64,000 nt of DNA, from the sequence record NZ_CP043850.1; one strand, 5' to 3'. The notes beneath the pieces are model-generated. The model searched no databases and was not told the DNA's origin. It was given only the letters and a program-made list of their open reading frames with translations. Source of the stretch: a plasmid. The translations under genes were made by a program, and so were the position numbers. Position 1 is the stretch's first letter. Each line of letters opens with the position of its first letter. Of the stretch, positions 23,720-44,477 are shown in pieces.

Positions 23720-23896
23720 GATGAGTCCTTTGTCATGTCGTCGAACGAGCAAGCCCGCGCGACTGGTGGGTAGTTTGCGCCTCGACGATGTGGCGACTGC
23801 ATTCACGGTAACTTTCGGGCGCCCGCGATGTCAACGTCGGCCGAATATTGACCCCTTATCGTCGTTGAATTTTGACCCCCTCGAATTGATGTGTTG

Positions 23897-24676
23897 TTAC
23901 TTGCCCGCGGGTTGTGCGGGGGTCTTGAGGAGCTCGCGGCGTGCCCTGGTGCGGTAGGAGTCCCCGCCGAGGGTGAGGACTTCCGCGTGGTGAACGAGTC
24001 GGTCGATCATCGCGGCCGCGACGATGTCGTCGGAGAAGATCTCACCCCATCTGCCGAAGGGCATGTTGCTGGTGAGCACGATCGAGCCTTGCTCGTAGCG
24101 GGACGCGATGAGTTGGAAGAACAGGTTCGCGGCGTCCGCGTCGAATGGCAGGTAGCCGACCTCGTCGATGATCAGCATCCGGTAGCGGCGGAGTCGTTTC
24201 AGCTCATGCTCGAGCCGGCCGGCTGCGTGCGCGGCCTGGAGTCGGCCAGCCCAGCCGGTCGCGGTATCGAACAACACCGGGTATCCAGCGTGCGCGGCTT
24301 TGATGCCGAGGCCGATCGCGAGGTGTGTTTTGCCGACACCGGGTGGGCCGAGCAGGATCACGTTCTCCGCTTTCGGGATGAACGTTGTCGTCGCGAGGTG
24401 AGCGAGGACATCGCGACGCAGCGAGGGCTGATGGTCGGCGTTGAAGTCGTCCAGGGTCTTCACCGCGGGGAAGTGAGCGCCCGCGATTCGCAGTGTCGTT
24501 CCGTTCGCTTCCCGGTCCGCGACCTGGCGTTGCAGGACCGCGGTGAGGTATTCCTCGTGGGACCAGCCCTCGGTGCGGGCTTGATCGCCGAGGGTCTCCC
24601 AGACCCGGCCGATCGTGGGGGTCTTCAACGCCCGGGTCAGGTATCCCATCGTCGCCGCGATCTCCGTTTCGGGCAT
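23897..24676 (-). CDS. istB: IS21-family helper ATPase IstB (intact)
   Basis: 259 aa with Walker A GPPGVGKTHLA and Walker B LLIIDEVGY. Confidence 0.9.
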   Translation of the reverse strand: MPETEIAATMGYLTRALKTPTIGRVWETLGDQARTEGWSHEEYLTAVLQRQVADREANGTTLRIAGAHFPAVKTLDDFNADHQPSLRRDVLAHLATTTFIPKAENVILLGPPGVGKTHLAIGLGIKAAHAGYPVLFDTATGWAGRLQAAHAAGRLEHELKRLRRYRMLIIDEVGYLPFDADAANLFFQLIASRYEQGSIVLTSNMPFGRWGEIFSDDIVAAAMIDRLVHHAEVLTLGGDSYRTRARRELLKTPAQPAGK

Positions 24677-25935
24677 CAGAGGACCTCACCGGTTCGAGGA
24701 TCGACAGGGAAATCGACGCCGAACAACTCGTCGTAGTCGGGCAGTTCCCGAAACACCACGCTGGCCGCTGGCTGCCCGCGATGGTGCAGTCGTTCTCGGT
24801 CGCGTTTCGCGGCGCTGAACGTGGAGCGCAGCCCCCTCGCGATCTCGACGTGGACAGGGTCGATGACGGTCGCGTGTTTCGCCCAACAGCGTTCGTGGTC
24901 AGCGACGGTGCGGCCATCGCAGATCACGATCACTCGTGTCAGCGTGGCCGTCACATCCACCAGCCGCCCAATCACGCGAGGGTCAACGGAGTAGTCGTTG
25001 GCATCGATGCGGACGTAGTAGTCCCGCGCCAATCGGACCCGGTTTCGCAGCCCCGTCACCGGCGGCAGCGGCGGCAACACGGTCATCGCCTGCAGATCCC
25101 GCTCCACCACGTCGATAGGTCGCCCGCCCAGCGAGCGGATCGTGCGGGAGTTCGCCCGCGGGAGCCACTCCGCGAGTTGGCTGTTGAAACTGTCCGGTGA
25201 CGCGAACGACCGCCCGGGCAGGAACGATGTCTCCATGTACTGGTTGTTGCGTTCGGTCATGCCCTTGAACTCCGGATCCCGCGGAGGGGCGAGCACGATC
25301 CTCGTCGCCAACGTTCCCGCGAACGCGGCCGCGGCCTGCGTGACAGTCCCCTTCCCCCCGATCGCGGCCTCACGATCCCAGACGAGCGTCTTCGAGACCC
25401 GCCCGACACGAGAGATCAGCTGCCACATCCCCGCGACCAGATCGCCCGCCTGCCGGGACGGGAGCATCACCGCGGACAGGAACCGGGAGAACGTCAACGT
25501 CATCACGAGCACCGGCAGCATCAACGCTTGCCCATGCCCGACAGGGATCCGCGGCTCCGGGAACCACAGATCCATCTGCGCGCTCTCGCCAGGAAGATGA
25601 ATCAGACGATCCGCGGGATCGACCCCGGCATACTCCGGACGAATCGTCCGGATCCGATCCTTCAGAATCGTGATCGAGTGTTCCCACCCGATCCGCTCCG
25701 CGATCACCGTCGCCGGCATCCTCGCATCCACCACCAAGAGCTTGCGGATCTCGGGCTCCGCAGCGTCAACGAGTGACCCTTTCCCTGCCCGCTGATACGA
25801 CGGCGGCGTCTCTGACGCCAACGCCGACCGCACCGTATTTCGCGCCACACCGAGCCGACGCACGATCTCCTTGATCGACACGCCCTCCGCCCGATGCAAC
25901 CGCCTGATCTCTGCCCACTGTTCCAAATTGATCAC
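24676..25935 (-). CDS. istA: IS21-family transposase IstA
   Basis: Identical to 19562-20821. Confidence 0.9.
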   Translation of the reverse strand: MINLEQWAEIRRLHRAEGVSIKEIVRRLGVARNTVRSALASETPPSYQRAGKGSLVDAAEPEIRKLLVVDARMPATVIAERIGWEHSITILKDRIRTIRPEYAGVDPADRLIHLPGESAQMDLWFPEPRIPVGHGQALMLPVLVMTLTFSRFLSAVMLPSRQAGDLVAGMWQLISRVGRVSKTLVWDREAAIGGKGTVTQAAAAFAGTLATRIVLAPPRDPEFKGMTERNNQYMETSFLPGRSFASPDSFNSQLAEWLPRANSRTIRSLGGRPIDVVERDLQAMTVLPPLPPVTGLRNRVRLARDYYVRIDANDYSVDPRVIGRLVDVTATLTRVIVICDGRTVADHERCWAKHATVIDPVHVEIARGLRSTFSAAKRDRERLHHRGQPAASVVFRELPDYDELFGVDFPVDPRTGEVL

Positions 25936-26080
25936 CCTCCAAAGGATGCCCGGAAGGGGTCAAAATTCCCCGACGCTCAGGGGTCAGTATTCACGCGTCG
26001 TCGACAGGGGTCCCTCGCCACAAACGACCGAATCTGTCGAGTCAGTTGCAGAGCGCCGGGGTCAAGGGAACGACTCCGCC

Positions 26081-27297: not shown

Positions 27298-27708
27298 AGG
27301 GGTTCCTCTCGTGATGGTTGGCTACTCACAGTGATGCCGTCACAGAGTGAACATGGTCAGAACGATAACAGCGCACACCTGCTCTCGGAATGAGTCGAGT
27401 CGGTCGGAACATGAGTGACCTATGCATGTCCAAGCAATGCACGCGCTGGCAGTTCGTTTCGGTGGCGGGGATTGGGCCAGCCACAAACAACCGATATGGG
27501 CGTTCAGCGAGGGGGTGAGTCGGTCTCTGCGGATCGGGGGGTCACCGCGGGGAGGTCACAGGGGAGCTTCACGACTGTCCGACTCGCGGCGACGCTTGGT
27601 GATCGCAGTCCGAAAGATGAGCGGCACGATCCCGAGGACGAAAAGACCCCAGCCCACCAGGGCGCGCCATTCCATCTGCGAGTTGGAGAGAACAAGGCTC
27701 CCGGCGAG

Positions 27709-29129
27709 AGTTGAGTCCCGCATAGTGGTGTAGCGCCCGGTGGTCGGGCGTGTCGTCTCAGACGTGGACGCGGCCACCGTGTGATCCGTCGAGTCAACCT
27801 TCCACAGAATCCTCGAATGGAGTCATCACGATGACCGCTCCTCATATTCTCGACCCTGCCGGCCTGCTCGGAGAAGCCCTGTCTGAAGCGTCCCCGGACA
27901 TGATGCGCCATCTGCTGCAGACCATGATCAACACCTTGCTGTCCGCGGATGCCGACGCGGTGGTCGGTGCCGAATGGGGCAAGCCCAGCTCCTCGCGCAC
28001 TGCTCAGCGGAACGGGTACCGCCACCGGGACCTGGACACCCGGGTCGGCACCCTGGACGTGGCCATCCCCAAGCTCAGATCGGGCACGTACTTCCCGGAC
28101 TGGCTACTTGAACGCAGGAAGAGAGCGGAGTCGGCGCTGATCACCGTGGTCGCTGACTGCTACCTCGCCGGGGTCTCGACCCGACGGATGGACAAGCTGG
28201 TCAAGACTCTGGGCGTCAACGCCCTGTCCAAGTCCCAAGTCTCCCGGATGGCCACCGAGCTCGACGAGCAGGTGGAGGCCTTCCGCCACCGGCCGCTCGG
28301 GGAGGCGGGACCGTTCACGTTCGTTGCCGCGGACGCGTTGACGATGAAGGTGCGTGAGGGCGGGCGTGTGGTCAACGCGGTGGTGCTCATCGCCACCGGG
28401 GTCAACGGCGACGGCCACCGCGAAGTGTTGGGCCTGCGGGTGGCCACCAGCGAGACCGGGGCGGCGTGGAACGAGTTCTTCGCCGACCTGGTCGCCCGGG
28501 GCCTGGCCGGGGTCCGGCTGGTCACCTCTGATGCCCACCCCGGGCTCAAGGACGCCATCGCCGCGAACCTGCCCGGTGCGGTGTGGCAACGCTGCCGCAC
28601 CCACTACGCGGCGAACCTGATGGGCATCACCCCGAAGAGCATGTGGCCGGCGGTGAAGGCCATGCTCCACTCGGTCTACGACCAGCCCGATGCCGCCAGC
28701 GTCAACGCCCAGTTCGACCGGCTGCTGGACTACGTGAGCGAGAAACTGCCGGTGGTGGCCGAGCACCTCGATGCTGCCCGGGCCGACATCCTGGCGTTCA
28801 CCACATTCCCCAAGGACGTCTGGACCCAGATCTGGTCGAACAACCCGGCCGAGCGGCTCAACCGCGAGATCCGCCGCCGCACCGACGCGGTGGGCATCTT
28901 CCCCAACCGGGCGGCCATCGTCAGGCTAGTGGGTGCGGTGCTGGCCGAGCAGACCGATGAATGGGCCGAGGGTCGACGCTACCTCGGTCTCGAAGTCCTG
29001 GCCCGCTGCCGACTCACCACCGTGACCAACACCGGAGACGAGGTGGACCCCGACACCGAACTCAACCTCGGCCTCAGCGCCTGACCCCCATGAAGGATCA
29101 GACCGCTACACCATCACGAGGGGCTTGAC
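27709..29129 (+). mobile_element. IS256-family insertion sequence (about 1.42 kb) with 8-bp target-site duplication
   Basis: Imperfect about 27-bp terminal IRs (AGTTGAGTCCCGCATAGTGGTGTAGCG / rc GGTCAAGCCCCTCGTGATGGTGTAGCG). Flanked by the direct repeat CCGGCGAG (27701-27708 and 29131-29138). Encodes a mutator-type transposase. Confidence 0.8.
27831..29084 (+). CDS. IS256-family (mutator-type) transposase
   Basis: 417 aa from MTAPHILDPAGLL, RBS GGAG upstream. Conserved IS256 transposase blocks (DxxVxTxxGxREVLG, ...WQRCxxH, NxxERxNReIRRRT). Confidence 0.85.
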   Translation: MTAPHILDPAGLLGEALSEASPDMMRHLLQTMINTLLSADADAVVGAEWGKPSSSRTAQRNGYRHRDLDTRVGTLDVAIPKLRSGTYFPDWLLERRKRAESALITVVADCYLAGVSTRRMDKLVKTLGVNALSKSQVSRMATELDEQVEAFRHRPLGEAGPFTFVAADALTMKVREGGRVVNAVVLIATGVNGDGHREVLGLRVATSETGAAWNEFFADLVARGLAGVRLVTSDAHPGLKDAIAANLPGAVWQRCRTHYAANLMGITPKSMWPAVKAMLHSVYDQPDAASVNAQFDRLLDYVSEKLPVVAEHLDAARADILAFTTFPKDVWTQIWSNNPAERLNREIRRRTDAVGIFPNRAAIVRLVGAVLAEQTDEWAEGRRYLGLEVLARCRLTTVTNTGDEVDPDTELNLGLSA

Positions 29130-29182
29130 CCCGGCGAGCCATAGCGCCATGGTCAGCAAGGTGAGGCCCCAGTAGGTTCGCT

Positions 29183-30505
29183 GTGATTTTCTCATGTCTC
29201 CACAGCAGAAGAGTGGGAGAGGCCATGGGGAAAGGGCCCGGTGGGAGCATGCAGCAGCGACCGATCCGGGCAGAGACGTGGAGACTCCGTTTCGGGGCCA
29301 GCATGGTGGGGGATGGGCCTGGCACCGCGGATCTGGCCCTCGACGAAGCCTGCGGGCCGGGGGAGGATGGGCCGATGAAGGCGAGCGTGCAGGACCTGCT
29401 GGCCGGCCCGCGTGGGCGGCGTCTGTGTCTGGAGGCGACGAGGATGCTCAGCCTCCGGGTTGCCGAGCTGGTGTTCTGGCTGGGCTATGAGCTGGATCCG
29501 GGCCGGGGCACCTCCCTGGTCGTGTGGTCCCCGGGCGGCGGTGCCCTGGAGGCGGGCGCGCGTCCTGCCGTGTCCATCGAGCAGGCGGCGCAAGCGATGG
29601 CCGACCTCGACCTCTCGGGCCTGACGGATGAGGTGGTCCAGGCGGCCCTGGTCGGTACGGTCATGTCGGCCCGGTACTGGCAGGAGCCCGACGGCGAGGA
29701 TGTGCTCGCCGGGCATCCGGCCGTCCAGGCCGCCCTGGAACCGGTGGCCGAGGGCGTGCTGGGCTCGGCAGTGGCCCGGCACTGGGGGAGTCCGCGCGCA
29801 GCGGCGCAGTGGGTGATCGACTGGCGGGCGTTCGAGGATCCGGCCCCGGTGTCCCGGGATGCTCAAGGGGTCCTGGCGGCCTGGGCTCGGGAAGAACGGC
29901 GGCAGGAAGTCCGGGCTGCCACTGAGCATCCTGCTGATCCGACGGCGAACTTCTCCGGGACCTGGTGGTCCATCCCGCAGGGGGCCGTCGTCAGCGTCGG
30001 GCAGATCCCGGCTGGGTTGGACCTCGTCGAGGACGACATCGGCGCGGAGGCGGCCACGGTGATCCCGGTGCGGGGAGCGGGTCGGACGTATGAGGTCCGT
30101 GGCCCCGGTGACTGGGTCCGGCTGTGTCGGTGGTTCCCGCTGGAGGTCAGTGCCTCGCGTCGGCACGACTGGTACCGGGTGACCGGCCGGTCCGGGCGGT
30201 GGGTCATCCCGGACTGGGAGCAGGTCGCTTCCGAGTGGGACGCGGTGCACCTGACCACCTTGGGCTATCTCGGCGCGGCCACGCGCGCTCTGCCCGTGGA
30301 CGCGGACATGGCCACGGTGCTCGCCGGGTGGAACCCGGACACCACCGTGTGGCTCACCGACACGGTCCGTGAGTCGGAGGAGCCCCGCCAATGTTGGCAG
30401 CGCGTATCCGGCGACGACGGATGGGCCCGTTGCTTGCCCGTCCGTGATGTCGGCTCGGAGGGCCCCGCGCGGGGACGCGGGGCCAGCCCGCCGGTGGAGG
30501 GGTGA
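29183..30505 (+). CDS. hypothetical protein (no recognisable domain)
   Basis: 440-aa ORF, Trp-rich C-terminal half. Start uncertain (candidate Met codons within the first ~65 residues of the 440-aa ORF). Coupled to the next ORF by a GTGA overlap at 30502-30505. Confidence 0.35.
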   Translation: MIFSCLHSRRVGEAMGKGPGGSMQQRPIRAETWRLRFGASMVGDGPGTADLALDEACGPGEDGPMKASVQDLLAGPRGRRLCLEATRMLSLRVAELVFWLGYELDPGRGTSLVVWSPGGGALEAGARPAVSIEQAAQAMADLDLSGLTDEVVQAALVGTVMSARYWQEPDGEDVLAGHPAVQAALEPVAEGVLGSAVARHWGSPRAAAQWVIDWRAFEDPAPVSRDAQGVLAAWAREERRQEVRAATEHPADPTANFSGTWWSIPQGAVVSVGQIPAGLDLVEDDIGAEAATVIPVRGAGRTYEVRGPGDWVRLCRWFPLEVSASRRHDWYRVTGRSGRWVIPDWEQVASEWDAVHLTTLGYLGAATRALPVDADMATVLAGWNPDTTVWLTDTVRESEEPRQCWQRVSGDDGWARCLPVRDVGSEGPARGRGASPPVEG

Positions 30506-30876
30506 GCAAGCGCGGGCCTTCTGCGTCGGGCCAGATGCCTTCCACGGAGGCTGTGCTCAGCATCCTTCGGCGTCTGGAGCGGCGTCACTTCAGCCGTGAT
30601 GTCTATGCGCGGTTGCTTGACGCCGACGTGACCGGGGAGGTGCTCACGGTGGTGGCCTGGCAGGGGGGTCCTTCCCCGGCGGACCCGGAGCGGGTGATCG
30701 CTCACCGCACGGACCTGCGCCAGCGTCTGACCGAATGCCGTGGCGATCTCGAGGCGGTGCTGATGGATGCGTTGCAGTTCGGTGTGTACGAACCAAGCTC
30801 GCCGGGCAGGCCGCCGGCGGGGGATGAGCCTGCCCGGCTGCTGGAGAAGTATCCCGAGGCCACCTGGTACGAGTGA
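30502..30876 (+). CDS. hypothetical protein (no recognisable domain)
   Basis: 124-aa ORF starting with GTG that overlaps the upstream stop. Same strand as the downstream resolvase. Confidence 0.3.
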   Translation: MSKRGPSASGQMPSTEAVLSILRRLERRHFSRDVYARLLDADVTGEVLTVVAWQGGPSPADPERVIAHRTDLRQRLTECRGDLEAVLMDALQFGVYEPSSPGRPPAGDEPARLLEKYPEATWYE

Positions 30877-31019
30877 GGAAGCTGGAGCGACGCGCGGCAA
30901 CATCTGGTCAGCGTCCAGTCGGGTATACCCCTTTACACACCCCCCGCCGCCACGAGAGGATCACGTCAGAGTGGGTTCATTTTGGACCCGTTGGACATAC
31001 CTGACGGAGGGTCTTAGAC

Positions 31020-31598
31020 GTGGTTGGACAGACTGTGGGGTACGTGCGGGTGAGCTCGGCGGAGCAGAACCTGGACCGCCAGCTCGAGGCGGTGGGGGAG
31101 TGCGACCGTGTCTTCCAGGACAAGATCTCCGGCAGCTCCCGCGCCAAGCGCGCCGGGCTGGCGGAGCTGATGCGGTACGTCCGCGAGGGGGATCTGGTGA
31201 AGGTCGCCTCCATGGACCGGCTGGGCCGGGACACCCGGGACCTGTACGCCATCGTGGACGAACTGACCGACAAGGGGTGCGCGGTGCAGTTCGTGTCCGA
31301 GCGGATCACCGTGGACAAGTCCGGCACCTCCCCGGTGGACGGGCTCATGCTGGGCATCCTGGCCGCGTTCGCTGAGTTCGAGCGTCGACGGATCAAGGAG
31401 CGCCAGGCAGAAGGCATCGCCCTGGCCAAGACGAGAGGCAAGTACGTGCAGGCCCCGAAGCTCTCGGACACCGACGTGGAGCAGGCCCGGGTGATGATCG
31501 AGATGGGGATCCCGAAGGCTGAGGTCGCTCGCACCTTCGGGGTCAGCCGGCAAACCCTGTACACCTCCCTCGCTCGCGGAGCAACGATGTTGCCTTGA
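31020..31598 (+). CDS. serine recombinase (resolvase/invertase family)
   Basis: 192 aa with catalytic-Ser motif GYVRVSSAEQNLDRQ, the resolvase core (DRLGRD) and a C-terminal HTH (VARTFGVSRQTLYTSL). Confidence 0.9.
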   Translation: MVGQTVGYVRVSSAEQNLDRQLEAVGECDRVFQDKISGSSRAKRAGLAELMRYVREGDLVKVASMDRLGRDTRDLYAIVDELTDKGCAVQFVSERITVDKSGTSPVDGLMLGILAAFAEFERRRIKERQAEGIALAKTRGKYVQAPKLSDTDVEQARVMIEMGIPKAEVARTFGVSRQTLYTSLARGATMLP

Positions 31599-31866
31599 GT
31601 GCCCCAAGGGGAGAGTCAGACCCCTGCTAGTAAGCTTCACGGGTAGGGGTAATGGTGAACCACCAACGGCTCGACTGTAGGGCATTTTTGTGCAGTCCGT
31701 GCATTTACCAAATTGGTTTAGAAAATCCTACGGACCCGCCCGACGCAGATATCTTTATATCGGTCCTCTCCTCCTTTAATCTCCATGCCCCTTGGGTCAC
31801 GGCAGTCGGCGTGGCGGCTATGAAATACCCCAGCGCTTTAGCGACACGCTGACGAACATCGAAAGA

Positions 31867-33693
31867 TCAATCAGTCGCCATCTCATTGAGCTTCTGCAGC
31901 CAACTCTTCACGTCCCCCGCAGGGTCTGCTTCTTTTAATCTATCCAATGTCATTTTTTCAAATGCTTCGTCCGCGAGGCGCCTCTTTACGATTTCCTCCT
32001 TTATGGGTCTGTGATCAGGCGCGTTTTTGGTAGCGTCGCTTACGAGCTTAGGGACGTTGCAGTCGTCTGTAACTTCAACCCGCACCCCCAGCGCTTCGAA
32101 AATGGCCTCCGGGTGTAGATAGTTCTCCATCATCTTCTTTGAAGTGAGTGTTGCAAACGATCCGTCACCGCGATTGTTTACCGCGTCGACGGATTGTTGG
32201 TATTTACTAACGTCATTGTCATAAAGATGAAACTCGCGGCGTCGTAAATCTTTTAGGTACCGCTTGCTTACCCACTGGCCCAGAGTGCCCCCTCCCTGGG
32301 GAACAAATGCAAAACGATGGTCTGCCATGAGATCTGGGTACGCTCCGGGATCTTCCTCATGCAACTTTCTAGAGATCTTCTGGAGCGACGTAACGTCATG
32401 TGGGCCCTCAACGCATATGAGAACTTTAACTCGATTGTCCGGCTGCACACCGAGTTCATCAGCGAGCTCTGCCCACATATCGTCATTTCCTTGTAAGATT
32501 GAGGGCTCTTCTGAGTAAATGTCCTTACGTATATACCGAATACTCTTTGCTGGCAAATGGGAAACGAATCCGGGACTATGGGAAGTGAGGATGACCTGAG
32601 TTCCGGGAACTTCGGCCATGAGCTGGAATGAGTCGAGCAGGATTTTCTGATTACGGGGGTGCTGTGATGTCTCTGGCTCTTCGAGTGCGTAGATTACAGA
32701 TGATTTATCACTGGACTCAAGCATGCGCTGGGCCTCAGCTTTGAAGAAGCTCACCAGGATTAGCCGACGAACTCCAGAGCCACGCTTGTTTATGGCCACC
32801 CCATTGGAGCCATGCAATGCGACAGAGAAGAGACTATGCCAGCGAGGGTCACTCTTAAACTCGGGGACTAACCCTTCGGCGATAGCGGGGTCGATCTCTG
32901 AGAGGGCCTCGTGAGTTCGAGACGCCAAATCCGTCGCCTTGCCTCGAACTGCTTCTACGACCTCCTCCAGGAGCTTCTGGACAGAGTCTTCAGCTAGCGC
33001 GGCTGTGATCGCCATTTTCATGGGTTCCTGGACTTCGTCATCTGCATCAGTACTTTTGCGATCTGACTGGAACAGGGCAAAGTAAGGCAGATAACCGGTC
33101 AATTTGGTGAATATTTTACCGCCATCTTCTTTACCTAGAGAGATTTCGGATTCTGACAAATTTAGATCTTCGCATCCCCATAGGGCGGCTCTTAGGTCAG
33201 GGTTAGAAGCCTTGTTGACATGGTTGTATTCTGACGGGTCAAGACGAGTTCTGGCCAGTGACTTAAGTGCCGTATTTGTTAGAGAGAGTAGGTTATCTAG
33301 CTCCTTATTTATAGGATGTTGGCATACTACATACGTCTCTTCTTTCGGCTTGGAGCTGGTGCATACCCACCGCTTTCTGAGCTGAAGGCATCCGTCCTTG
33401 TCCAACAGGTGTTCCTGGGCGAGGCTCGTTTCTGCCTGCGCATCGAGGACTAGGGAAGGGGGAAGCTCGGAAAACTTACATGTAATTTGGAAAAAATTTT
33501 CCGATGTGGAGACATTTTTATCGGTGATATCCGGTTTTACGACATTTCCTCCAAAGAATATATCTAGAGCCTCTAGTATCGTTGACTTGCCAACGTCGTT
33601 ACGGCCAACGATTGTGGTCAGGTCTTCGAAGCTAACCCATTTCTCTTCTCGGTAGCCACGGAAATTTTTTAATGAGACGGCAATGAGCTTCAT
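31867..33693 (-). CDS. OLD-family ATP-dependent nuclease (N-terminal ABC/AAA_21 ATPase + C-terminal Toprim), class 1 (no helicase partner)
   Basis: Walker A GRNDVGKSTILEAL near the N-terminus (start probably MKLIAVSLKNF at 33693; the ORF extends to 33783). Signature/Walker B region ...VIYALEEPETSQHP. C-terminal Toprim-like block VLICVEGPHD...FHLYDNDVS. This gene and its flanks are about 45% GC versus about 68-70% elsewhere. Confidence 0.75.
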   Translation of the reverse strand: MKLIAVSLKNFRGYREEKWVSFEDLTTIVGRNDVGKSTILEALDIFFGGNVVKPDITDKNVSTSENFFQITCKFSELPPSLVLDAQAETSLAQEHLLDKDGCLQLRKRWVCTSSKPKEETYVVCQHPINKELDNLLSLTNTALKSLARTRLDPSEYNHVNKASNPDLRAALWGCEDLNLSESEISLGKEDGGKIFTKLTGYLPYFALFQSDRKSTDADDEVQEPMKMAITAALAEDSVQKLLEEVVEAVRGKATDLASRTHEALSEIDPAIAEGLVPEFKSDPRWHSLFSVALHGSNGVAINKRGSGVRRLILVSFFKAEAQRMLESSDKSSVIYALEEPETSQHPRNQKILLDSFQLMAEVPGTQVILTSHSPGFVSHLPAKSIRYIRKDIYSEEPSILQGNDDMWAELADELGVQPDNRVKVLICVEGPHDVTSLQKISRKLHEEDPGAYPDLMADHRFAFVPQGGGTLGQWVSKRYLKDLRRREFHLYDNDVSKYQQSVDAVNNRGDGSFATLTSKKMMENYLHPEAIFEALGVRVEVTDDCNVPKLVSDATKNAPDHRPIKEEIVKRRLADEAFEKMTLDRLKEADPAGDVKSWLQKLNEMATD

Positions 33694-34135
33694 CGAGGGC
33701 CTGAATTCTTTGAAGGTGGCGGTACTTTGCGTGGGTTGTGTGAGTATAAAAGAACGATGACGGAAGGCCTGTTGAAAAATCACGACACTACATGCGCGAC
33801 GATCAAGACCATCTGGTATGGGCCATCGTGCCAGGCGCCCTGAGTAGAGGCAAGACTTTGGTGAGGGGAGTTCTGAGAGCGGGTGCTGTTCCTTCAGATC
33901 GAGTGGCGACAGCGGCGACGCTCGTGTAGGTCGAGGCCCACCTGAAGGGCCTGCATAACTGGCCGGGGCGAGTATCTGAGGATGCCGTCGCCTGCTTGCC
34001 CCGGGTAAGAGCGTCAGAGGGCAGCGGCAACTCGAAGAGGGGACGCTGTAAAAAAATGCACTTCAGAAGAGGAGCGCATTTGACCCGTGCGGGCACAACT
34101 CGAGCACCAACCTGCTCCTGCTACTCCCATGGGTG

Positions 34136-36976
34136 TCAGGCCGTTAACTCGGCGTAGCGGGTGAAGAGCAGTTCCTGACGCTCCAGCTCGGTGCGGCAAC
34201 GCCGTGCGGCGCCGAAGGCCTTGTCCACCTCCGTGTCCAGCGCGTCGTGGGCCTTCACCAAAGCCGGGTCCATGCCTAGTGCCGTGTAGTGCTGAGCTAG
34301 GGAGCGTCCGGGGTGCAGAGCGCGTGCGGCCAGCACCTTCTGGCCGGCGGCAATGATCTTCTCCCGTTGTCCCTCGGCCAGAGGCGGTAGGGGCAGGGTG
34401 GTCCACGTCAACGTGGAACCGAACCGCAAGTCCGACTTGAGGCGGCCGCCGACGGTCTTCTGCCAGGTCAGGAACATGCTCGAGGAGAGCATGGCGAACT
34501 GGAACCCGTCTGGGTCCGGGCACTGGAAGGTCGCATCGCTGGCGATCACCGTCTGCGGCAGTAACTGAACGGGGAAGTAGGGACGTTCCTCGGAGACATG
34601 GCGTGGGATGCACACGTAATCCGTGGCCAACGCCTGCACCTGACGGAACAGGTGGTGATGACGGTAATCGCGGGTAGACGCTGCGGCAGAGCGGCCCCGG
34701 AACTGTCGGACCGCCTCCACGCGCTCGTGCAACACCGGGGAGGCGTGGATCTCCGCCCCGGTCGCCTGGACCAGCCACAGGCACCATCGCTCTTCAGAAT
34801 GCAACAGCTCACGGGCACCGACGTAGGGCCGCAGGTACTTCGCGGCGATCGGATCTGCTCGTACCTGCTCCACCTCCGTAGCACCGACCAGCAGATGCCC
34901 ATCGTCCGTGGGCTTGGATCCGTACATCGGCATGTTTAGCTCCGCCGAGATCGGCCGGCTGCGCTTGGTCACCAACACGTTGGGCCCGTCCACCAGGTAG
35001 GCGTTGATCGTCTTCACCCCGGGCACTTCGCGGGCCTCACTGCGCGCGTGCTCGTATTTGAACAGGCGCGCCTTGGCATCGGGGTCGCGGGTGAAGCCGA
35101 TGATCACGCAGTGCACCGCGGCCTTGCCGGGGGCCTGGGAGTCCCACGCGAAAGTGCGGTGGGCGAACTTGATCCGCCAGCCGGCGGCGAAGATCGGGGC
35201 GAACAATCGAGCCGGCTGGTCCCCCTGCACGATCGAGTTCGTGGTCACGAACGCCCACTCCCCATCCCGATCGGTGAACAAGCGCAAGGTGAGCGCGTGC
35301 CAGGCGGTGACGTAGTCCAGGCGAGAGAGATCCTTGTTGCCACCCCAGGCGGCGTGCATCAAGGCGAGCTGCGCCCTGGTTCGGGTGGTGTCACCCAGGA
35401 ACGGGGGGTTGCCGAACACGAACGTGCGCCCGGCCGGGGCGGGGAGGGCCTGAGACCAGTCGAGGGTGAGCGCGTCGTGCTGGTAGATCGTGGCGGTGAT
35501 CTTGATCGGCAGACGCACCGGGGCCTGGCCGAGCGCGGCGGCCAGCTGCCGATTGGCCTGATGGTCCACGAGGAACATGGCGGTCTCGGCGATCTTGGCC
35601 GGCCACCAGTTGATCTCGACCCCGTAGAACCGGTCGATGTGGATCCGCTGGTCCAAGCTCACGTCCAGGGACAGGTCCAGGGACCCGGTGCGGCGGCGCT
35701 GGTCGGCCAGCAGGTCCGTCTCGATCTCGCGCAGCTTGGCGTAGGCCAGGTTCAAGAAGTTGCCGGCCCCGCAGGCCGGGTCGACGTAGATGTTGGCGGC
35801 CATCTCCTCGATCAGCCCGATCACCTCACGCCGGGTGGTGGTCTTGTTCTGGATGAGCCGGTCCGCGCGGGCGCGGTACTCGTCCAGGAAGAGCGGGCCG
35901 ATGGTCTTGAGGATGTTCTCCTCGGAGGTGTAGTGCTCCCCGTCCCCGCGGCGGGCCTGCTTGGACTTGACCAGTTGGAACATGGAGCCGAATACGGCCG
36001 GGGAGATCTGGGTCCACCGGAACCGGCAGGCTGCCACGAGCGCGTCCCGGAAGTCGTTGGTGAGGAAGCCGGCCGTGGAGGTGCCGTCGAAGATGCCGCC
36101 GTTGACGTAGGGGAAGCGGGCCAGAGAGTCCGGCACACCGCGGCGCCGGTTCTCGGGGGTGTTGAGCACGCGGAAGAGCGCGTCGAGCTGGGGGCCGAGG
36201 TTGTCGGCGGTGGTGTCCCACTCCACCCAACGCTGGAACAGGTCGGCCTCCCACAGGCCGGCGTCGTCTCCGTAGAGCAGGAACAGCAGCCGGGTGAGCA
36301 GGATCGAGGCCTGCTGGGTGGCGAACTCCTCCTCTTCGGCGTCCTCGGGGGCCTCCTCGCCCACGGGTACGTCCACCTCGTCCCCGACGAGGGCGGTGAA
36401 CATGGAGGCCATCAGCTGCGCGGCCGCGATGGAGGCCTCTTGTTCCTCGGTCTTGGTCACGGTGTCCCGGCCGGCCAGGAACATCAGCTGGTCCACGTGA
36501 TCGGTGGCCTCTTGCACGGTGAACTCGGACACCCAGCCGGCCTCGCCCAGACGTTCGACGCGGATGCGGGCGAAGTCTGTGACGAGCACGTACTTGGGCC
36601 ACTCGTGCTGACCGATGGATCCGCCGGCCAGGTAGTCCAGGGCCTGGGCGTGGGCGACGTCGAGGTCGGCACCCAGGGACTTGGCCTCGCCCAGGGCGAC
36701 GCCGGACCAGAAGAAGTCGATGTAGCCGGCCCCGCCGGTGGAGGCGCGCGCGGCCCCGCGCTCGAACAGGTCGATGCGCTCGGGGATCACCCCGAAGGTT
36801 CGCAGCAGGTCGGACCAGAACTGCTGGGCGAAGGACTTCTCCGTGTGGGTCTGTCCATCGGCGCGCCAGCGGTCGATGCGCTGACCCCAGGCATGTCCGA
36901 AGTCGTCCAGGGCTGTGCGGATGACGCCGCGATCTGCAAGTTGCTCCACAGGCACAACGTACAGCGACCTGAGCAA
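34136..36976 (-). CDS. MmeI-family Type IIL restriction-modification enzyme (fused endonuclease + N6-adenine methyltransferase + TRD)
   Basis: 946 aa. N-terminal PD-ExK block with MmeI-like spacing, D-X9-E-X-K (IDFFWSGVALGEAKS). SAM-binding motif I (DPACGAGNFL) and motif IV (NPPFLGD) in the central MTase. Long C-terminal target-recognition region. Confidence 0.75.
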   Translation of the reverse strand: MLRSLYVVPVEQLADRGVIRTALDDFGHAWGQRIDRWRADGQTHTEKSFAQQFWSDLLRTFGVIPERIDLFERGAARASTGGAGYIDFFWSGVALGEAKSLGADLDVAHAQALDYLAGGSIGQHEWPKYVLVTDFARIRVERLGEAGWVSEFTVQEATDHVDQLMFLAGRDTVTKTEEQEASIAAAQLMASMFTALVGDEVDVPVGEEAPEDAEEEEFATQQASILLTRLLFLLYGDDAGLWEADLFQRWVEWDTTADNLGPQLDALFRVLNTPENRRRGVPDSLARFPYVNGGIFDGTSTAGFLTNDFRDALVAACRFRWTQISPAVFGSMFQLVKSKQARRGDGEHYTSEENILKTIGPLFLDEYRARADRLIQNKTTTRREVIGLIEEMAANIYVDPACGAGNFLNLAYAKLREIETDLLADQRRRTGSLDLSLDVSLDQRIHIDRFYGVEINWWPAKIAETAMFLVDHQANRQLAAALGQAPVRLPIKITATIYQHDALTLDWSQALPAPAGRTFVFGNPPFLGDTTRTRAQLALMHAAWGGNKDLSRLDYVTAWHALTLRLFTDRDGEWAFVTTNSIVQGDQPARLFAPIFAAGWRIKFAHRTFAWDSQAPGKAAVHCVIIGFTRDPDAKARLFKYEHARSEAREVPGVKTINAYLVDGPNVLVTKRSRPISAELNMPMYGSKPTDDGHLLVGATEVEQVRADPIAAKYLRPYVGARELLHSEERWCLWLVQATGAEIHASPVLHERVEAVRQFRGRSAAASTRDYRHHHLFRQVQALATDYVCIPRHVSEERPYFPVQLLPQTVIASDATFQCPDPDGFQFAMLSSSMFLTWQKTVGGRLKSDLRFGSTLTWTTLPLPPLAEGQREKIIAAGQKVLAARALHPGRSLAQHYTALGMDPALVKAHDALDTEVDKAFGAARRCRTELERQELLFTRYAELTA

Positions 36977-37112
36977 GCCCCCTCATCTGAGATAACCGGT
37001 TCGGGAGCCACGCCGCCGGCGTAGAGGGGGCAGGGGGGTGGTGTAGCTCTGCCTAGGATCGGTGGCGATGCACCCTCGCATCGCGTCATCTGCTCGAGCA
37101 AGGAACTCGCCC

Positions 37113-37778
37113 ATGTCACGACGCTCTCTGGCTTCTCTGGCCACTGCTGCTGCTTTAGTCGCCACCGCTGTCCTCGGGGGTGCGGGATCGGCGGCAGCCG
37201 GCACCACGTACTCGGCCCCGTTGCGCACGGCTGTGGCGTCGTTGCCGGTCGCGGCGGAGAACAATGCCGGCTATGACCGGGCCGCCCAGTTCGGGGACTG
37301 GAAGGATGCGAACAGGGACTGCCAGAACACTCGGGCAGAGGTGTTGATCGCAGAGTCCAAGACCACCCCGAAGTTCACGACGGCCCGTAAGTGCACGGTG
37401 GCCACGGGCAAGTGGGTGAGCAGCTGGGATCTGCGCACGCACACGTCTGCATCGACGGTGCAGATCGATCACATGGTGCCCGTGCATGAGGCGTGGGGCT
37501 CGGGAGCCCGGTACTGGACCAAGGCCAAGCGGGTGGCGTTCTACAACGACTTGGGGGATGCCCGGTCGCTGAACGCGCAGACCTCGGCGTTGAACTCGGC
37601 CAAGCAGGCCCGCGGTCCGGAGCAGTGGCTGCCGCCGAAGAACCAGTGCAAGTACATCGCTGACTGGACCGCGGTGAAGATCCGCTGGGGGTTGAAGGCT
37701 GACGCCACGGAGAAGGCGTTCTTGGTGAAGAAGGCCGCCTCCTGCGCAAACACCACCCTGAAGGTGACCCGGTACTGA
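37113..37778 (+). CDS. secreted DUF1524/HNH-type nuclease
   Basis: Signal peptide MSRRSLASLATAAALVATAVLGGAGSAAA, RBS AAGGAA. DUF1524 His-Me-finger pattern (QIDHMVPVHEAW...NDLGDARSLNAQTSALNSAKQ). The ORF track extends 17 codons upstream. Confidence 0.6.
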   Translation: MSRRSLASLATAAALVATAVLGGAGSAAAGTTYSAPLRTAVASLPVAAENNAGYDRAAQFGDWKDANRDCQNTRAEVLIAESKTTPKFTTARKCTVATGKWVSSWDLRTHTSASTVQIDHMVPVHEAWGSGARYWTKAKRVAFYNDLGDARSLNAQTSALNSAKQARGPEQWLPPKNQCKYIADWTAVKIRWGLKADATEKAFLVKKAASCANTTLKVTRY

Positions 37779-38242
37779 GGCTGCACGGCCGCAATGGTGC
37801 CCATTCCCTAGACGTTGACGGCTGCGCGTGTGGGCATTGGTCTGTACGGGGGCTGGCTCGAGGACTTGTGTTCGTACGCATGTCTGTCAGCGCCGCCCCT
37901 CTCCTGGAGCTTGCCGAGAGTCGAGGCGTCTGCTTCCTGCTGCGAGCCCGTCGGCTACCCCCGCCACCCTGTCCAGAGGTCTCGAGGCACCCGCCGTATG
38001 GGGCTTCTGCCGTCTTGAGCAGGCGTGGTCCTGGAGCTCCGGTCGTCCGGAGAGCGCGAACCTGCTACGGGGGTCTTACCTCGCGGCAGGGGACCGCTTC
38101 ACCGTGCGGGTCGGGGTGTCGTTGTCGGCATTGGGAAGGTGGCGGTGCAGGACGCGTGGAGTCGGGGCGGCCCGCGGCAGGAGGCCCGGAACGCCGGCCA
38201 CAAACGACCGTTTGCGGCGCTCGAGGGGGAGTGGTGGCTGAC

Positions 38243-38285
38243 TGTCAAGACGCGGCGAAGATCGCACGCGACTCGTGAAGGGCAG
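38243..38285. repeat. degenerate left-type TIR copy (TGTCAAGACGCGGCGAAGATCGCACGCGACTCGTGAAGGG)
   Basis: Matches the consensus TGTCGAGATGCAGCGAAGAT with 3 mismatches, and the subterminal GCACGCGACTCG of the 57505 copy. Preceded at 38200 by CCACAAACGACCG, a motif also found at 26024, 26766 and 27478. Confidence 0.4.
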
Positions 38286-38323
38286 TTCCTTGGAGGGCTC
38301 TGGGGCGGAGAGTGTCAGACGAC

Positions 38324-38941
38324 TCAGCTCCGGTTGGACTCGATCCATCCGTGGCGGCGTACGCCGGCGTCCTGCCGTGTGCCACAGTCGAGCACGGTGA
38401 ATCCCGCCGTGATCAACAGGCGGGAGAGCCCATCGACCGGCCAGTGCCACGCCGTGGTGACGGCGTGGTCGAAGGCCTCCACCTGGTTTGACGCGAAGAA
38501 GCCCAGCAGCAGTGACCCGCCAGGGCGCAGTGCCTGGTGCGCGCGCTCCAGGAGGGTAGGCATCTCCACCGGCGGCGTGTGGATGATTGAGTACCAGCCC
38601 AGGATCCCGTTGAAGGCGGCTACGGGCAGGGTCTGGAACGAGCCCGGCTCCACGCGTACCTCCGGGTGGGTTCGGTGTGCGTGGGTCACGAACTCTTCGA
38701 CCGGCTCGATGCCCGTCACCTCATGGCCCCGCGAGGCCAGGTGCGCGGTCCAGTGGGCCGGCCCGCAGCCGACGTCGGCCAGAACCCCATCCACCCGGTC
38801 GGCCCAGGCTTCGACCAGGAGCCTGTCGTCCTCGGCGACGGCGGCCATGGTCCCCAGCAGCTCCGTGTACTCGGCCGCGCGGGCGTCATAGGCGGCCGAG
38901 CTGGTGGAAAGTCCTTCCCGGGCGGCGTCGTCAGGGGTCAC
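38324..38941 (-). CDS. class I SAM-dependent methyltransferase
   Basis: 205 aa with motif I VLADVGCGPAHWTAHL and a Rossmann-fold pattern. Confidence 0.65.
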   Translation of the reverse strand: MTPDDAAREGLSTSSAAYDARAAEYTELLGTMAAVAEDDRLLVEAWADRVDGVLADVGCGPAHWTAHLASRGHEVTGIEPVEEFVTHAHRTHPEVRVEPGSFQTLPVAAFNGILGWYSIIHTPPVEMPTLLERAHQALRPGGSLLLGFFASNQVEAFDHAVTTAWHWPVDGLSRLLITAGFTVLDCGTRQDAGVRRHGWIESNRS

Positions 38942-40590: not shown

Positions 40591-40714
40591 CAGGCGCTTC
40601 CTGGCGTATGAAACATATTTGCGCGTTTCTGAAATCTTCACTGCATCTCGACAGGCGCTTCCTGGCGTATGAAACATATTTGCGCGTTTCTGAAATCTTC
40701 ACTGCATCTCGACA
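40591..40714. repeat. tandem duplication (2 x about 61 bp) of right-type TIR end (rc TGTCGAGATGCAGTGAAGATTTCAGAAACGCGCAAATATGTTTCATACGCCAGGAAGCGCCTG)
   Basis: The unit CAGGCGCTTCCTGGCGTATGAAACATATTTGCGCGTTTCTGAAATCTTCACTGCATCTCGACA occurs at 40591-40653 and again at 40652-40714. Its outer about 50 bp also occur at 58839-58897. The first ~25 nt of its reverse complement match the left-type copies. Confidence 0.7.
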
Positions 40715-43415: not shown

Positions 43416-44477
43416 TCACGCCGCGTCTGCGGGCGTGTGGTCCATGATCAACTCGTACTCGACCGGCGTCAATCGGCCCAGGCGCACCTGCCGGCGGCGG
43501 CGGTGGTAGGTCCGCTCGATCCAGGTGATGATCCCGGCCCGCAGCTCGTCCCGGGTGTCCCAGTCGCGTCGGTCCAGCACGTTCTTCTGCAGCAACGCGA
43601 AGAAGGACTCCATAGCCGCGTTGTCCCCTGCAGCACCGACCTGTCCCATGGACCCGATCAGCCCGTGGGCGGTCAGGGCGTCCTGGAATAGGGCCGAGCG
43701 GAATTGCGAGCCGCGGTCCGAGTGCACGATGCACCCGGCCACCACGTCGGTGCCTCCGCGGCGGGCCACGGCCTGCTCGAGCGCGTTCACGGCCAACGAG
43801 GCCTGCATCCGGTCGGCCATGGAGTACCCCACGATCCGTCCGGCGTAGAGATCCTTGATCGCGCAGAGGTAGAGCTTGCCCTCACCGGTGGGGTGTTCGG
43901 TGATGTCGGTCAACCACAGCCGGTTGGGCTCCTCGGCAGAGAAGTCCCGGCGGACGTGGTCATCGTGCACGGGCGGGCCTGGGCGGGTCCCGTTCTTGCC
44001 GCGCTTGGCCCCGAACGCGCAGTGCCACTGGTTCTCGTGGCAGAGCCGCCAGGCGGTACGGGCCGCCATCGGAGCGCCAGCATTCTCGGCCTCGTCGCGC
44101 AGCAGCCGGTACCCGAACTCGGGATCGTTCTGGTGGGCGTCGTGGAGGGCGTTGGCCCGGTGAGCGGCCTCCACCTCCGCGGTGGTGACAGGGTTCTGGA
44201 GCCAGCGGTAGTAGGGCTGGCGGGCGAGCTTGAGGACCCGCAAGGACACCACGACCGGGATCTGGTCGGCGGCGAGCTCGGACACGAGCGGGTACATCAT
44301 TTTTTCGGCAGGTTCGCCTGGGAGAGGTAGGCCGCGGCGCGGCGTAGGACTTCGTTCTCCTGCTCGAGCAGCCGGATCCTGCGGCGGGCTGCGCGGAGTT
44401 CTTCGGCCTCGGCCTTGGTGGGGCCGGGCTTGTTCCCAGCTTCGATCTCGGCCTGGCGCATCCAGTTCGTCAGACAA
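43416..44477 (-). CDS. IS3-family transposase OrfB (DDE integrase core), expressed as an OrfAB fusion by -1 frameshift
   Basis: DDE motifs (WLTDITEH..., HSDRGSQFRS, ...ESFFALLQKNV). Frame -1 relative to orfA through the AAAAAAT run near 44300-44312. Confidence 0.85.
   Translation of the reverse strand: MSDELDAPGRDRSWEQARPHQGRGRRTPRSPPQDPAARAGERSPTPRRGLPLPGEPAEKMMYPLVSELAADQIPVVVSLRVLKLARQPYYRWLQNPVTTAEVEAAHRANALHDAHQNDPEFGYRLLRDEAENAGAPMAARTAWRLCHENQWHCAFGAKRGKNGTRPGPPVHDDHVRRDFSAEEPNRLWLTDITEHPTGEGKLYLCAIKDLYAGRIVGYSMADRMQASLAVNALEQAVARRGGTDVVAGCIVHSDRGSQFRSALFQDALTAHGLIGSMGQVGAAGDNAAMESFFALLQKNVLDRRDWDTRDELRAGIITWIERTYHRRRRQVRLGRLTPVEYELIMDHTPADAA

Follow-up and report, generated by a model that had tools for sequence, protein, structure and literature searches.

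The question raised by this locus is which of four adjacent genes—encoding a serine recombinase, an OLD-family nuclease, a restriction-modification (RM) enzyme, and a putatively exported nuclease—would constitute a defence unit, and whether those that do would act together. The locus belongs to a stretch of 64,000 nt, which entire length we refer to as the window. The initial annotation had grouped the four genes as a mobile defence island, and all four open reading frames were found at the coordinates and on the strands assigned to them. We consider it likely that the segment constitutes a two-gene defence cargo within a variable slot of a conjugative-plasmid-like element of Micrococcus luteus, which cargo would presumably protect its host. 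Among mobile anti-phage defence islets, the locus would thereby make a good example, if an ordinary one, and all the findings obtained here leave the current understanding standing.

Plasmid setting and limits of the variable slot

The window has the appearance of a conjugative plasmid of Micrococcus, with genes of plasmid type (RepA_C, a VirB4-like AAA_10, M23/NlpC-P60, T2SSE, FtsK-like, and metal-efflux genes) and a conjugation module ca. 77% identical to that of Micrococcus plasmids. At the left of the slot is a small serine recombinase of the resolvase/invertase type (31020–31598, + strand; 192 aa), composed of a catalytic domain (Pfam Resolvase, E 1.3e-36, 126 bits), which is N-terminal and has its nucleophilic serine in the motif Y8-V-R-V-S12, and a C-terminal helix-turn-helix (HTH_7, E 4e-8, 33.6 bits), and matching a DNA invertase in PHROG (E 1.7e-54). 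As annotated, this gene converges on the OLD gene, from which it is separated by a gap of 268 bp. The resolvase module, at 30911–31567, has ca. 88% nucleotide identity to the resolvase genes of three Micrococcus plasmids; the homology to CP101529, pSGAir0127, and pSD10 begins at 30911–30913 and ends at 31567, still within the resolvase gene and 31 bp short of its stop. A metagenome contig of M. luteus (L002), for its part, is 99.6% identical rightwards from 30921 and unrelated leftwards, which point of divergence coincides with a 10-bp palindrome, GGGTATACCC, at 30921–30930, 90 bp ahead of the start of the resolvase gene. The palindrome marks the left breakpoint of the conserved res-resolvase module and is a candidate res crossover site, at which module the recombinase would presumably resolve plasmid multimers or cointegrates.

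At the right edge, homology to CP101529 and pSGAir0127 picks up again at 37051–37054, the fixed breakpoints around the slot being 30911–30921, 31567, and 37051. The variable interval (31567–37051; 5.5 kb) thus lies between the resolvase module and the DUF1524 gene, and holds here the OLD and MmeI-type genes; a search for terminal repeats bounding either this interval or the low-GC tract within it returned short chance matches only. Among the five to six Micrococcus plasmids that made up our comparison, the contents differed: in CP101529 the equivalent interval measures 350 bp and is empty of cargo; pSGAir0127 carries a hypothetical gene, YfbU, and a different MmeI-type enzyme; pSD10 has GajA and GajB (Gabija) plus a type II methyltransferase downstream of the homologous resolvase; and on pJD12 the HNH gene is adjoined by genes for a methyltransferase and a DEAD/DEAH helicase.

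That HNH-like gene, the right anchor of the slot, encodes a DUF1524/GmrSD_C-type His-Me nuclease (37113–37778, + strand; 221 aa), which open reading frame extends from an alternative start at 37062, though the gene calls elsewhere begin at M18, i.e., at 37113. Residues 114–223 matched GmrSD_C (E 5e-6; 26.9 bits, the cut-off being 23), the motif DHMVP is at residue 136 of the longer frame, and from M18 the N-terminus reads MSRRSLASLATAAALVATAVLGGAGSAAA followed by G, in the manner of a signal peptide: SRR, a hydrophobic core, and an AAA/G junction. The annotation of a secreted nuclease is consistent with these features, and the protein, if exported as its N-terminus suggests, would most likely target extracellular DNA and hence stand outside intracellular immunity. 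Five or more Micrococcus plasmids carry this gene at 95% identity, with the annotation of an HNH endonuclease family protein. We rejected an identity with the type IV enzyme GmrSD, since GmrSD_C was found without GmrSD_N/DUF262 and the N-terminus is signal-peptide-like, which leaves a stand-alone DUF1524 nuclease; a PDB sequence search with this protein gave no meaningful match.

In the island proposal, every gene assignment stood, as did the mobility, the region being located on a plasmid-like element with recombination breakpoints at its bounds; a refinement concerns the resolvase and the DUF1524 nuclease, which are conserved backbone genes flanking the slot and which nothing found here ties to the defence function. 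The arrangement resembles the defence hotspots of other mobile elements—P2/P4, hotspot 5 of the SXT ICE, Tn7-like elements, and integron cargo—in its conserved flanks, sharp breakpoints, and interchangeable defence cargo; but, in contrast to those, the anchors here are a plasmid resolvase, which provides a candidate exchange mechanism, and a gene for a putatively exported nuclease on Micrococcus plasmids. The interval is a possible hotspot, with defence systems that differ from plasmid to plasmid, and might repay mining for new cargo; if it were a genuine one, the resolvase would swap cargo such as class 1 OLD, Gabija, or MmeI-type genes at fixed breakpoints.

The MmeI-type restriction-modification enzyme

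The larger of the cargo genes (34136–36976, − strand) encodes a single-chain RM enzyme of the MmeI family (Type IIL/IIG) of 946 aa with all its motifs intact. The five Pfam domains MmeI_N, _hel, _Mtase, _TRD, and _C were all above threshold; the PADLOC model REase_MTase_IIG scored 1032.7 bits; and the match with MmeI itself (PDB 5hr4) covered the full length, residues 44–945, at E 9e-175. A PD-ExK nuclease, a helical spacer, a gamma-class m6A methyltransferase, a target-recognition domain, and a C-terminal domain follow one another in one chain, with the catalytic residues D87-X9-E97-A-K99, motif I (DPACGAGNFL) at 399, and motif IV (NPPF) at 523, so that the Type IIL assignment and the motifs on which the initial annotation had based it were borne out. 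The protein is collinear with MmeI over 900 residues, and differs from it in the residues determining specificity (R792/D814, A815/R851, and K847/D849): read with the published specificity code of the family (PMC2731914), which assigns G to position 3, R to position 4, and G to position 6, these predict the site NNGRAG, with GRAG at positions 3–6 as opposed to the CRAC of MmeI, positions 1 and 2 being beyond prediction. The polypeptide would methylate adenine on one strand of that short asymmetric site, and its N-terminal PD-ExK domain would cut incoming DNA that lacks the modification some two helical turns downstream, at a predicted distance of ca. 20/18 nt; an NNGRAG-type methylation motif constitutes a testable prediction. 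The gene is ca. 81% identical in nucleotide sequence to one on pLMV7, whose homologue has no OLD neighbour, and an exact-sequence look-up of the 946-aa protein returned no record.

The OLD-family protein, its class, and its composition

The second cargo gene lies on the − strand in an open reading frame of 638 aa (31867–33783), but because all the homologues (596–640 aa) start at M31 of that frame, we take the gene to be 31867–33693, encoding 608 aa. Its N-terminal part is an ABC-type ATPase (Pfam AAA_15, E 2.7e-73) whose Walker A (G30-x4-GKS37), Q-loop (Q209), signature-like motif (RGSG305), Walker B (EEPE338), and H-loop (H372) are invariant across 39 homologues. Fused to it is a divergent Toprim domain, whose metal-binding motifs comprise a conserved glutamate and DxD, and the conservation that the annotation had asked to see was found: the acidic residues are invariant, and in the neighbouring enzyme the PD-ExK motif is intact. 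The predicted active-site residues are K36, E429, D492, and D494, and the protein would be a metal-dependent nuclease as well as an ATPase. By fold, it matched TsOLD, GajA, the OLD of Eco8, and the heads of Rad50/SMC; the closest PDB match by both profile and fold was the class 1 OLD of Thermus scotoductus, 6p74 (profile E 3e-20; Foldseek 1e-16), in agreement with the class 1 OLD-family ATPase/Toprim originally annotated.

Standard annotation profiles gave a different picture. Whereas PDB profiles supported the OLD family, Pfam and NCBIfam made no Toprim call: the C-terminal domain went unrecognised by Pfam Toprim_Old, DUF4435, and NCBIfam, a Pfam scan of that domain at E ≤10 produced one chance match only, the NCBIfam matches of the whole protein were confined to the ATPase region, and the top PADLOC model was the ATPase-only AriA. 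The assignment to OLD thus relies on structure plus PDB profiles and not on the standard annotation HMMs, which circumstance explains why genes of this subfamily are labelled only as ATP-binding proteins. The C-terminal domain occurs almost exclusively in the fused 600-aa architecture (616 clusters at 50% identity), and 553 or more members of the subfamily were hit among species-representative genomes of many phyla; the locus thereby adds a well-delimited and widespread OLD subfamily. To our knowledge, class 1 is the least understood of the OLD classes, P2 Old, Vc OLD, and YbjD being the only members with phenotypes.

The protein fits class 1 because no helicase, retron, or split-Toprim partner is present either here or in 80 related loci. 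The gene has the resolvase and the MmeI-type gene as its neighbours in the window, and both the list of open reading frames and Pfam confirmed the annotated lack of an adjacent helicase; there is neither a UvrD/PcrA-like helicase nor a retron reverse transcriptase or noncoding RNA, and the ATPase and Toprim are unsplit. A search of 30000–38500 against Rfam for retron and other noncoding RNAs gave nothing significant (one sub-threshold match, E 0.51), and no helicase or reverse transcriptase recurred beside the OLD genes of the 80 loci (UvrD_C in 1 of 76 upstream genes). In common with P2 Old, TsOLD, Vc OLD, and YbjD of E. coli, the protein is a single chain in which an N-terminal ABC ATPase, interrupted by a helical insert, precedes a Toprim with E / DxD / E metal ligands at the C-terminus; unlike them, it forms a compact subfamily of its own, with only ca. 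17% identity to TsOLD, and has a Toprim not seen by Pfam or NCBIfam. In addition, a review defines class 1 genes as single genes at a distance from other candidate defence genes (PMC10568477), whereas the present one starts 442 bp downstream from an RM gene; that criterion is descriptive rather than mechanistic. Defence by a single class 1 OLD gene has a precedent in Vc OLD (PMC12392090), and ABC-ATPase/Toprim fusions within RM-like systems have been shown to defend, as in HEC-04 (bioRxiv 10.1101/2024.01.29.577857), a shorter protein with Toprim residues E319/D375/D377 in place of E429/D492/D494. The ABC ATPase, whose helical insert probably mediates dimerisation, would control a two-metal Toprim nuclease that would nick or degrade replicating phage or plasmid DNA, with no need for a dedicated partner protein.

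Gabija (class 2 OLD) shares the ATPase-Toprim architecture, the models and structures of GajA were strong secondary matches, and a true Gabija system fills the equivalent slot on pSD10; nevertheless, we ruled this identity out, since there is no UvrD-like GajB in the islet or beside the relatives, and the GajA HMMs gave at most 77 bits with our protein as against 609 bits with the GajA of pSD10. A fused PARIS-type system—AriA and AriB in one chain, OLD class 4—is a rival identity. The ATPase would then sense a phage anti-restriction protein, e.g., an Ocr- or Stp-like inhibitor, and the Toprim would cleave tRNA instead of DNA, leading to abortive infection as a back-up once the MmeI-type enzyme had been neutralised. 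We regard that identity as quite improbable. In contrast to AriB and to fused AriAB, the protein gave no DUF4435 signal, and the solved AriA structure matched it at the Walker B region only.

The composition of the gene, for its part, argues for a lower-GC donor. The GC content of the gene is 49.5% as against 0.66–0.68 on either side, the low GC that the annotation had noticed being limited to a tract at ca. 31600–33850, made up of the OLD gene and its own flanks, and GC3 is 0.53 versus 0.85–0.90 in host genes. The gene contains 8 AUA, 6 AGA, and 5 UUA codons, of which 30 others in the window make 10–60 times less use (per 1000 codons, AUA 13.2 vs. 0.2 and AGA 9.9 vs. 1.0 in host-like genes), so that its expression in M. 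luteus may be poor. In that species, AUA and AGA had historically been described as unassigned codons (PMC4695839), which claim whole-genome data do not support (PMC4937558); we therefore dropped the notion of untranslatable codons and retained only a possible translational handicap. The spacer between the MmeI-type stop and the OLD start (33694–34135, − strand; 442 bp) has no significant Rfam match, and a scan for consensus promoters and terminators, of little value in a high-GC actinobacterium, found nothing above shuffle expectation, the spacer included. A 97-aa open reading frame called in this region on some contigs (33803–34096) is probably not a gene, with a flat GC1-3 of 0.56/0.63/0.63 and no Pfam hit on record. 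The foreign composition, the rare codons together with the historical report on them, and the want of a recognisable promoter would all suit a recently acquired and effectively silent OLD passenger beside an MmeI-type enzyme that alone was active, chiefly in plasmid addiction or stabilisation and not in phage defence. To that interpretation we give hardly any credence, since the reading frame is intact, every residue invariant in the family is kept, an identical protein recurs between samples, on 21 contigs or more—which recurrence suggests maintenance—and whole-genome data do not support the unassigned-codon claim.

A possible linkage between the OLD and RM genes

Because both their compositions (GC 0.495 vs. 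0.67) and their relatives differ, the OLD and MmeI-type genes were acquired separately; the transferred unit of the former could not be delimited, the homology to its relatives ending at the limits of the coding sequence. A separate origin leaves the question of a joint function, for which we consulted the 80 species-level loci of OLD relatives. PrrC guards the type I enzyme EcoprrI, and PARIS responds to Ocr. By analogy with PrrC in type I loci, the OLD protein and the MmeI-type enzyme might form one functional unit, in which the former, as an accessory or guard, would depend on or monitor the neighbouring RM enzyme, and might fire when a phage anti-restriction protein blocked that enzyme. 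The two genes are co-oriented, and in 18 of the 80 loci (ca. 22%) an RM-type gene is found no more than 4 kb away, which frequency hints at a coupling. The OLD gene is placed inside type I operons, between hsdM and hsdS, in L018 (where there is a 4-nt overlap), L019, L022, and L025; in four loci it follows an HpaII endonuclease by 5–7 nt, and in another an Eco57I-type enzyme by 3 nt; relatives were also found beside Hma methylases; and Pollutimonas (L087) has an independent MmeI-resolvase-OLD cluster. Defence genes embedded in RM operons are, moreover, a documented pattern (bioRxiv 10.1101/2024.01.29.577857).

Against a single unit, no RM gene was detected in the vicinity in at least 62 of the 80 loci, the neighbours being heterogeneous and including housekeeping genes; no partner gene was universal across the sample; the RM types concerned (I, II, IIG/IIL, and Hma) are mutually unrelated; the OLD and MmeI-type genes contrast sharply in composition, and the closest relative of the latter, on pLMV7, lacks an OLD gene; and in defence islands adjacency is to be expected anyway. 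We accordingly hold one functional unit to be decidedly improbable, and consider it unlikely, if somewhat less so, that the ca. 600-aa OLD subfamily should be an RM-linked guard and the resolvase-DUF1524 interval a genuine plasmid defence hotspot. The preferred reading remains that of two separately acquired defence genes in one slot. An obligatory linkage to type I RM, suggested by two early contexts, was rejected in the wider sample, where hsdM occurred in 3 of the 80 loci.

The interval between the resolvase and DUF1524 genes

The window contains genes for a RepA_C protein, a VirB4-like AAA_10 ATPase, an M23/NlpC-P60 hydrolase, a T2SSE ATPase and an FtsK-like protein, together with heavy-metal ATPases, a cation-efflux gene and several IS elements. 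Because of these replication and transfer genes, and of a transfer module about 77% identical to that of Micrococcus plasmids, the window looks, from its sequence, like a conjugative plasmid. The four ORFs of the islet lay at the coordinates and on the strands that the initial annotation had assigned to them. The outer two are a resolvase (31020–31598, plus strand; Pfam Resolvase, E 1.3e-36, plus HTH_7), in which the catalytic motif Y-x-R-V-S is present, and a DUF1524 gene (37113–37778), whose ORF matched GmrSD_C barely above the threshold (26.9 bits vs 23) and contains a DHMVP motif. Other annotations start the latter gene at M18 (37113), from which residue the protein has a signal-like N-terminus consisting of SRR, a hydrophobic core and an AAA|G junction; the GmrSD_C match and that N-terminus agree with the secreted nuclease announced by the initial annotation, of which claim the export itself stays putative.

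The resolvase module is about 88% conserved in the plasmids pSD10, CP101529 and pSGAir0127 from 30911–30913 to exactly 31567, and the DUF1524 gene is 95% conserved from 37051–37054 onward in CP101529 and pSGAir0127, with further plasmids carrying that gene. What lies between the two modules differs: in CP101529 they are separated by 350 bp; pSGAir0127 has a hypothetical gene, YfbU and a different MmeI-type enzyme there (1072 bits, in the opposite orientation); pSD10 (NC_004954, 6110–11706 of the compared locus) carries, directly after the resolvase gene, a complete set of Gabija genes (GajA 609 bits, GajB 477 bits) together with a type II methyltransferase; and the DUF1524 gene of pJD12 has a methyltransferase and a DEAD/DEAH helicase next to it. 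Since the flanks are conserved and the contents differ among these sister plasmids, 31567–37051 is a variable cargo slot between two backbone genes, for which slot we found no bounding terminal repeats. Gabija, a class 2 OLD system, occupies in pSD10 the position that in the window is held by a class 1 OLD, and one useful outcome of the analysis is that the resolvase–DUF1524 interval is a candidate defence hotspot on Micrococcus plasmids. The mobile defence islet of the initial annotation is thus upheld as a variable plasmid cargo slot and narrowed in its membership, the resolvase and the putative exported DUF1524 nuclease being backbone genes that anchor the slot, for neither of which did this analysis yield evidence of a role as a defence component.

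From 30921 rightwards, a Micrococcus luteus metagenome contig (L002) shares 99.6% identity with the window; to the left the two are unrelated. That break coincides with the 10-bp palindrome GGGTATACCC (30921–30930), which precedes the resolvase start by 90 bp, in the expected place for a crossover site, and is a candidate for that site.

The two cargo genes

The OLD-family ORF (31867–33783, minus strand, 638 aa) matched AAA_15 of Pfam with an E of 2.7e-73. As all the homologues (596–640 aa) start at the equivalent of M31, we assigned the gene to 31867–33693; an identical 608-aa protein is already annotated in M. luteus. The last 190 residues had no Pfam match even at E ≤10, NCBIfam returned ATPase matches only, all sub-threshold, and the best PADLOC model was the ATPase-only AriA (373 positions), after which came numerous GajA and Old models with weak scores. 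The standard HMM libraries thus detect the ATPase part only and, because they are blind to the C-terminal part, we built an alignment of 39 sequences of the family. Invariant in that alignment were C427-V-E429-G-x-x-D433, G467-G468, H489-x-Y-D492-x-D494, E523-N-Y and K570, the pattern that would be expected for a Toprim active site. When compared with solved structures, the family profile matched 6p74, the class 1 OLD of Thermus scotoductus (TsOLD), best (E 3e-20, the alignment reaching into the Toprim VEG motif) and GajA second, while the AF2 full-length model (pLDDT 85.5) retrieved 6p74, GajA and the retron Eco8 OLD as the top Foldseek matches. On the strength of these motifs, profiles and folds the protein is therefore a member of the OLD family, as the initial annotation had proposed, in which an ABC ATPase is fused to a Toprim domain of divergent sequence. 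A phmmer search of 1.84 billion cluster representatives with the C-terminal domain retrieved 616 clusters, in which nearly all the full-length matches had 595–640 aa with that domain at about 400–610; the shorter matches look like fragments.

The second cargo gene (34136–36976, minus strand) encodes a 946-aa protein with all five MmeI Pfam domains, which scored 1032 bits with the PADLOC type IIG model and aligned over residues 44–945 with MmeI (5hr4, E 9e-175). The motifs D87-X9-E97-X-K99, DPACGAGNFL399 and NPPF523 were all present, so that its earlier description as an MmeI-type RM enzyme stands. Reading the 5hr4 alignment by the residue code of PMC2731914, we obtained a predicted G at position 3 of the site (R792/D814 here, E751/N773 in MmeI), R at position 4 (A815/R851 vs A774/R810) and G at position 6 (K847/D849 vs E806/R808). 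The predicted recognition site would be 5'-NNGRAG-3', with positions 1–2 outside the reach of the code and, by analogy with the family, the adenine at position 5 as the probable methylated base; this predicted methylation motif is a second useful outcome.

The two cargo genes differ in composition. The GC content of the OLD gene is 0.495 vs 0.66–0.68 in the flanks, in a dip confined to about 31600–33850, and its GC3 is 0.53 vs 0.85–0.90 in the neighbours, which figures bear out the low GC remarked upon initially and make this gene compositionally foreign; the MmeI-type gene is host-like (GC 0.67, GC3 0.89). The closest MmeI relative (about 81% nucleotide identity) is on plasmid pLMV7 with no OLD gene beside it, and the OLD gene has its closest relatives, at 75% amino-acid identity, in Glutamicibacter, Leucobacter and Arthrobacter, where the GC of the gene is likewise below that of its flanks and the DNA homology is confined to the coding sequence. 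By their composition and their different relatives, the two genes have separate origins.

Neighbourhoods of the OLD relatives

No helicase, reverse transcriptase or ncRNA was found near the OLD gene in the window. Eight contexts of its closer relatives had different neighbours each time, and a scan of species-representative genomes gave at least 553 relatives, from which 80 loci (40–69% identity, from many phyla and one archaeon) were kept. The genes directly upstream and downstream were heterogeneous, and no neighbour family was common to more than 8 of the 80 loci. Class 1 OLD genes are defined operationally as stand-alone, not split, without GajB and without a retron (PMC10568477), and by this definition the OLD gene belongs to class 1; the initial observation that it has no adjacent helicase holds in the window, and no helicase recurred as a neighbour in the 80 loci. 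The same paper describes class 1 genes as lying away from other defence genes, which does not apply to the OLD gene of the window, preceded as it is by the MmeI-type gene.

An RM-type gene was located within 4 kb of the OLD relative in 18 of the 80 loci. Relatives of about 50% identity lie between hsdM and hsdS in type I RM operons (L018, 4695–14977; L019, 4224–13282; L022; L025), in the first of which loci the relative overlaps hsdM by 4 nt; others follow HpaII- or Eco57I-type enzymes at a distance of a few nucleotides, or have Hma-type DUF1156 methylases as neighbours. As ABC-ATPase/Toprim defence genes embedded in RM-like operons have already been described, e.g., the validated HEC-04 (bioRxiv 10.1101/2024.01.29.577857), the RM linkage is a lead rather than a discovery, and the useful product here is that an OLD subfamily has been defined which is poorly annotated and shows a partial linkage of that kind.

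Certain loci deserve separate mention. The L018 operon also contains DarT and a macrodomain gene. In four Bacteroidaceae/Prevotella loci (L071, L073, L075, L077) the OLD relative begins 5–7 nt past an HpaII-family restriction-endonuclease gene, with a C5 cytosine methyltransferase within 4 kb in the first three. In the betaproteobacterium Pollutimonas bauzanensis (L087, 4103–9700) these three gene families cluster independently: an MmeI-type enzyme of 946 aa shares one strand with a resolvase, and the OLD relative adjoins them divergently. In Glutamicibacter (L009, 2041–5862; L010, 3897–7631) the closest OLD relatives are downstream of a 1244–1273-aa protein without a Pfam domain, itself preceded by a DUF5677 protein, which two proteins possibly form an uncharacterised defence pair.

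Proposed activities, rival readings and other features of the window

The locus consists of an MmeI-family RM enzyme and a class-1-type OLD nuclease, both of kinds already known, in a plasmid cargo slot. If the locus does protect, the MmeI-type enzyme would mark one strand of its own site, in plasmid and host DNA alike, and would cut unmarked incoming DNA. The OLD enzyme would work alone, with ATP binding or hydrolysis by the ABC head, probably dimeric, gating a two-metal Toprim nuclease that would nick or degrade replicating invader DNA, in the manner described for Vc OLD, TsOLD and P2 Old (PMC10568477, PMC12392090). The resolvase would resolve multimers or cointegrates, with contexts being reshuffled at its site, and the DUF1524 protein would be exported to act on extracellular DNA.

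Three rival readings, all of them less likely, bear upon the OLD gene. Its product might be a fused PARIS-like tRNase. Alternatively, the MmeI-type and OLD enzymes might form one functional unit, the OLD guarding the RM enzyme; their adjacency and the 18 loci with a nearby RM-type gene would suit such a unit, but the at least 62 of the 80 loci having no RM gene argue against an obligatory coupling. The OLD gene might, finally, be a silent passenger. Its 8 AUA, 6 AGA and 5 UUA codons (13.2, 9.9 and 8.2 per 1000) occur 10–60 times less often in 30 further genes of the window (0.2, 1.0 and 0.3 per 1000), and its mRNA may be translated inefficiently in M. luteus, where AUA and AGA had formerly been described as unassigned (PMC4695839), a status for which a later paper found no support in genome data (PMC4937558). 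Against silence speak the intact ORF and the recurrence of the identical protein on at least 21 contigs; an OLD nuclease acting alone is the reading that we favour.

Elsewhere in the window, a 7.3-kb segment (18714–26007), which is missing from contig JALXRQ020000006 although that contig is identical in other respects, resembles a composite insertion of the IS21 family: the segment is bracketed by ORFs of equal length (419 aa; 19562–20821 and 24676–25935), in the scanned one of which rve and Mu-transposase C domains were found, and contains an IstB gene (23897–24676) and an alpha/beta hydrolase (22883–23806). An IS256/Mutator-family transposase (27750–29084) is within a 1.4-kb insertion (27708–29130) missing from another compared contig, L001. 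Directly left of the resolvase module, two ORFs of 440 and 124 aa with a 4-nt overlap (29183–30876) had no match in Pfam, NCBIfam, PADLOC or PHROGs; L001 carries them, and L002 has other genes instead. A tRNA-Cys gene (44974–45047) adjoins an IS3-type (rve) transposase (43416–44477). An intergenic region of lower GC at 40591–40714 appears to contain a short repeat, either tandem or dispersed: two 63-bp stretches lie side by side and correspond to the same 63-bp units, which are repeated in L002, with short matches of a similar kind near 58849–58899.
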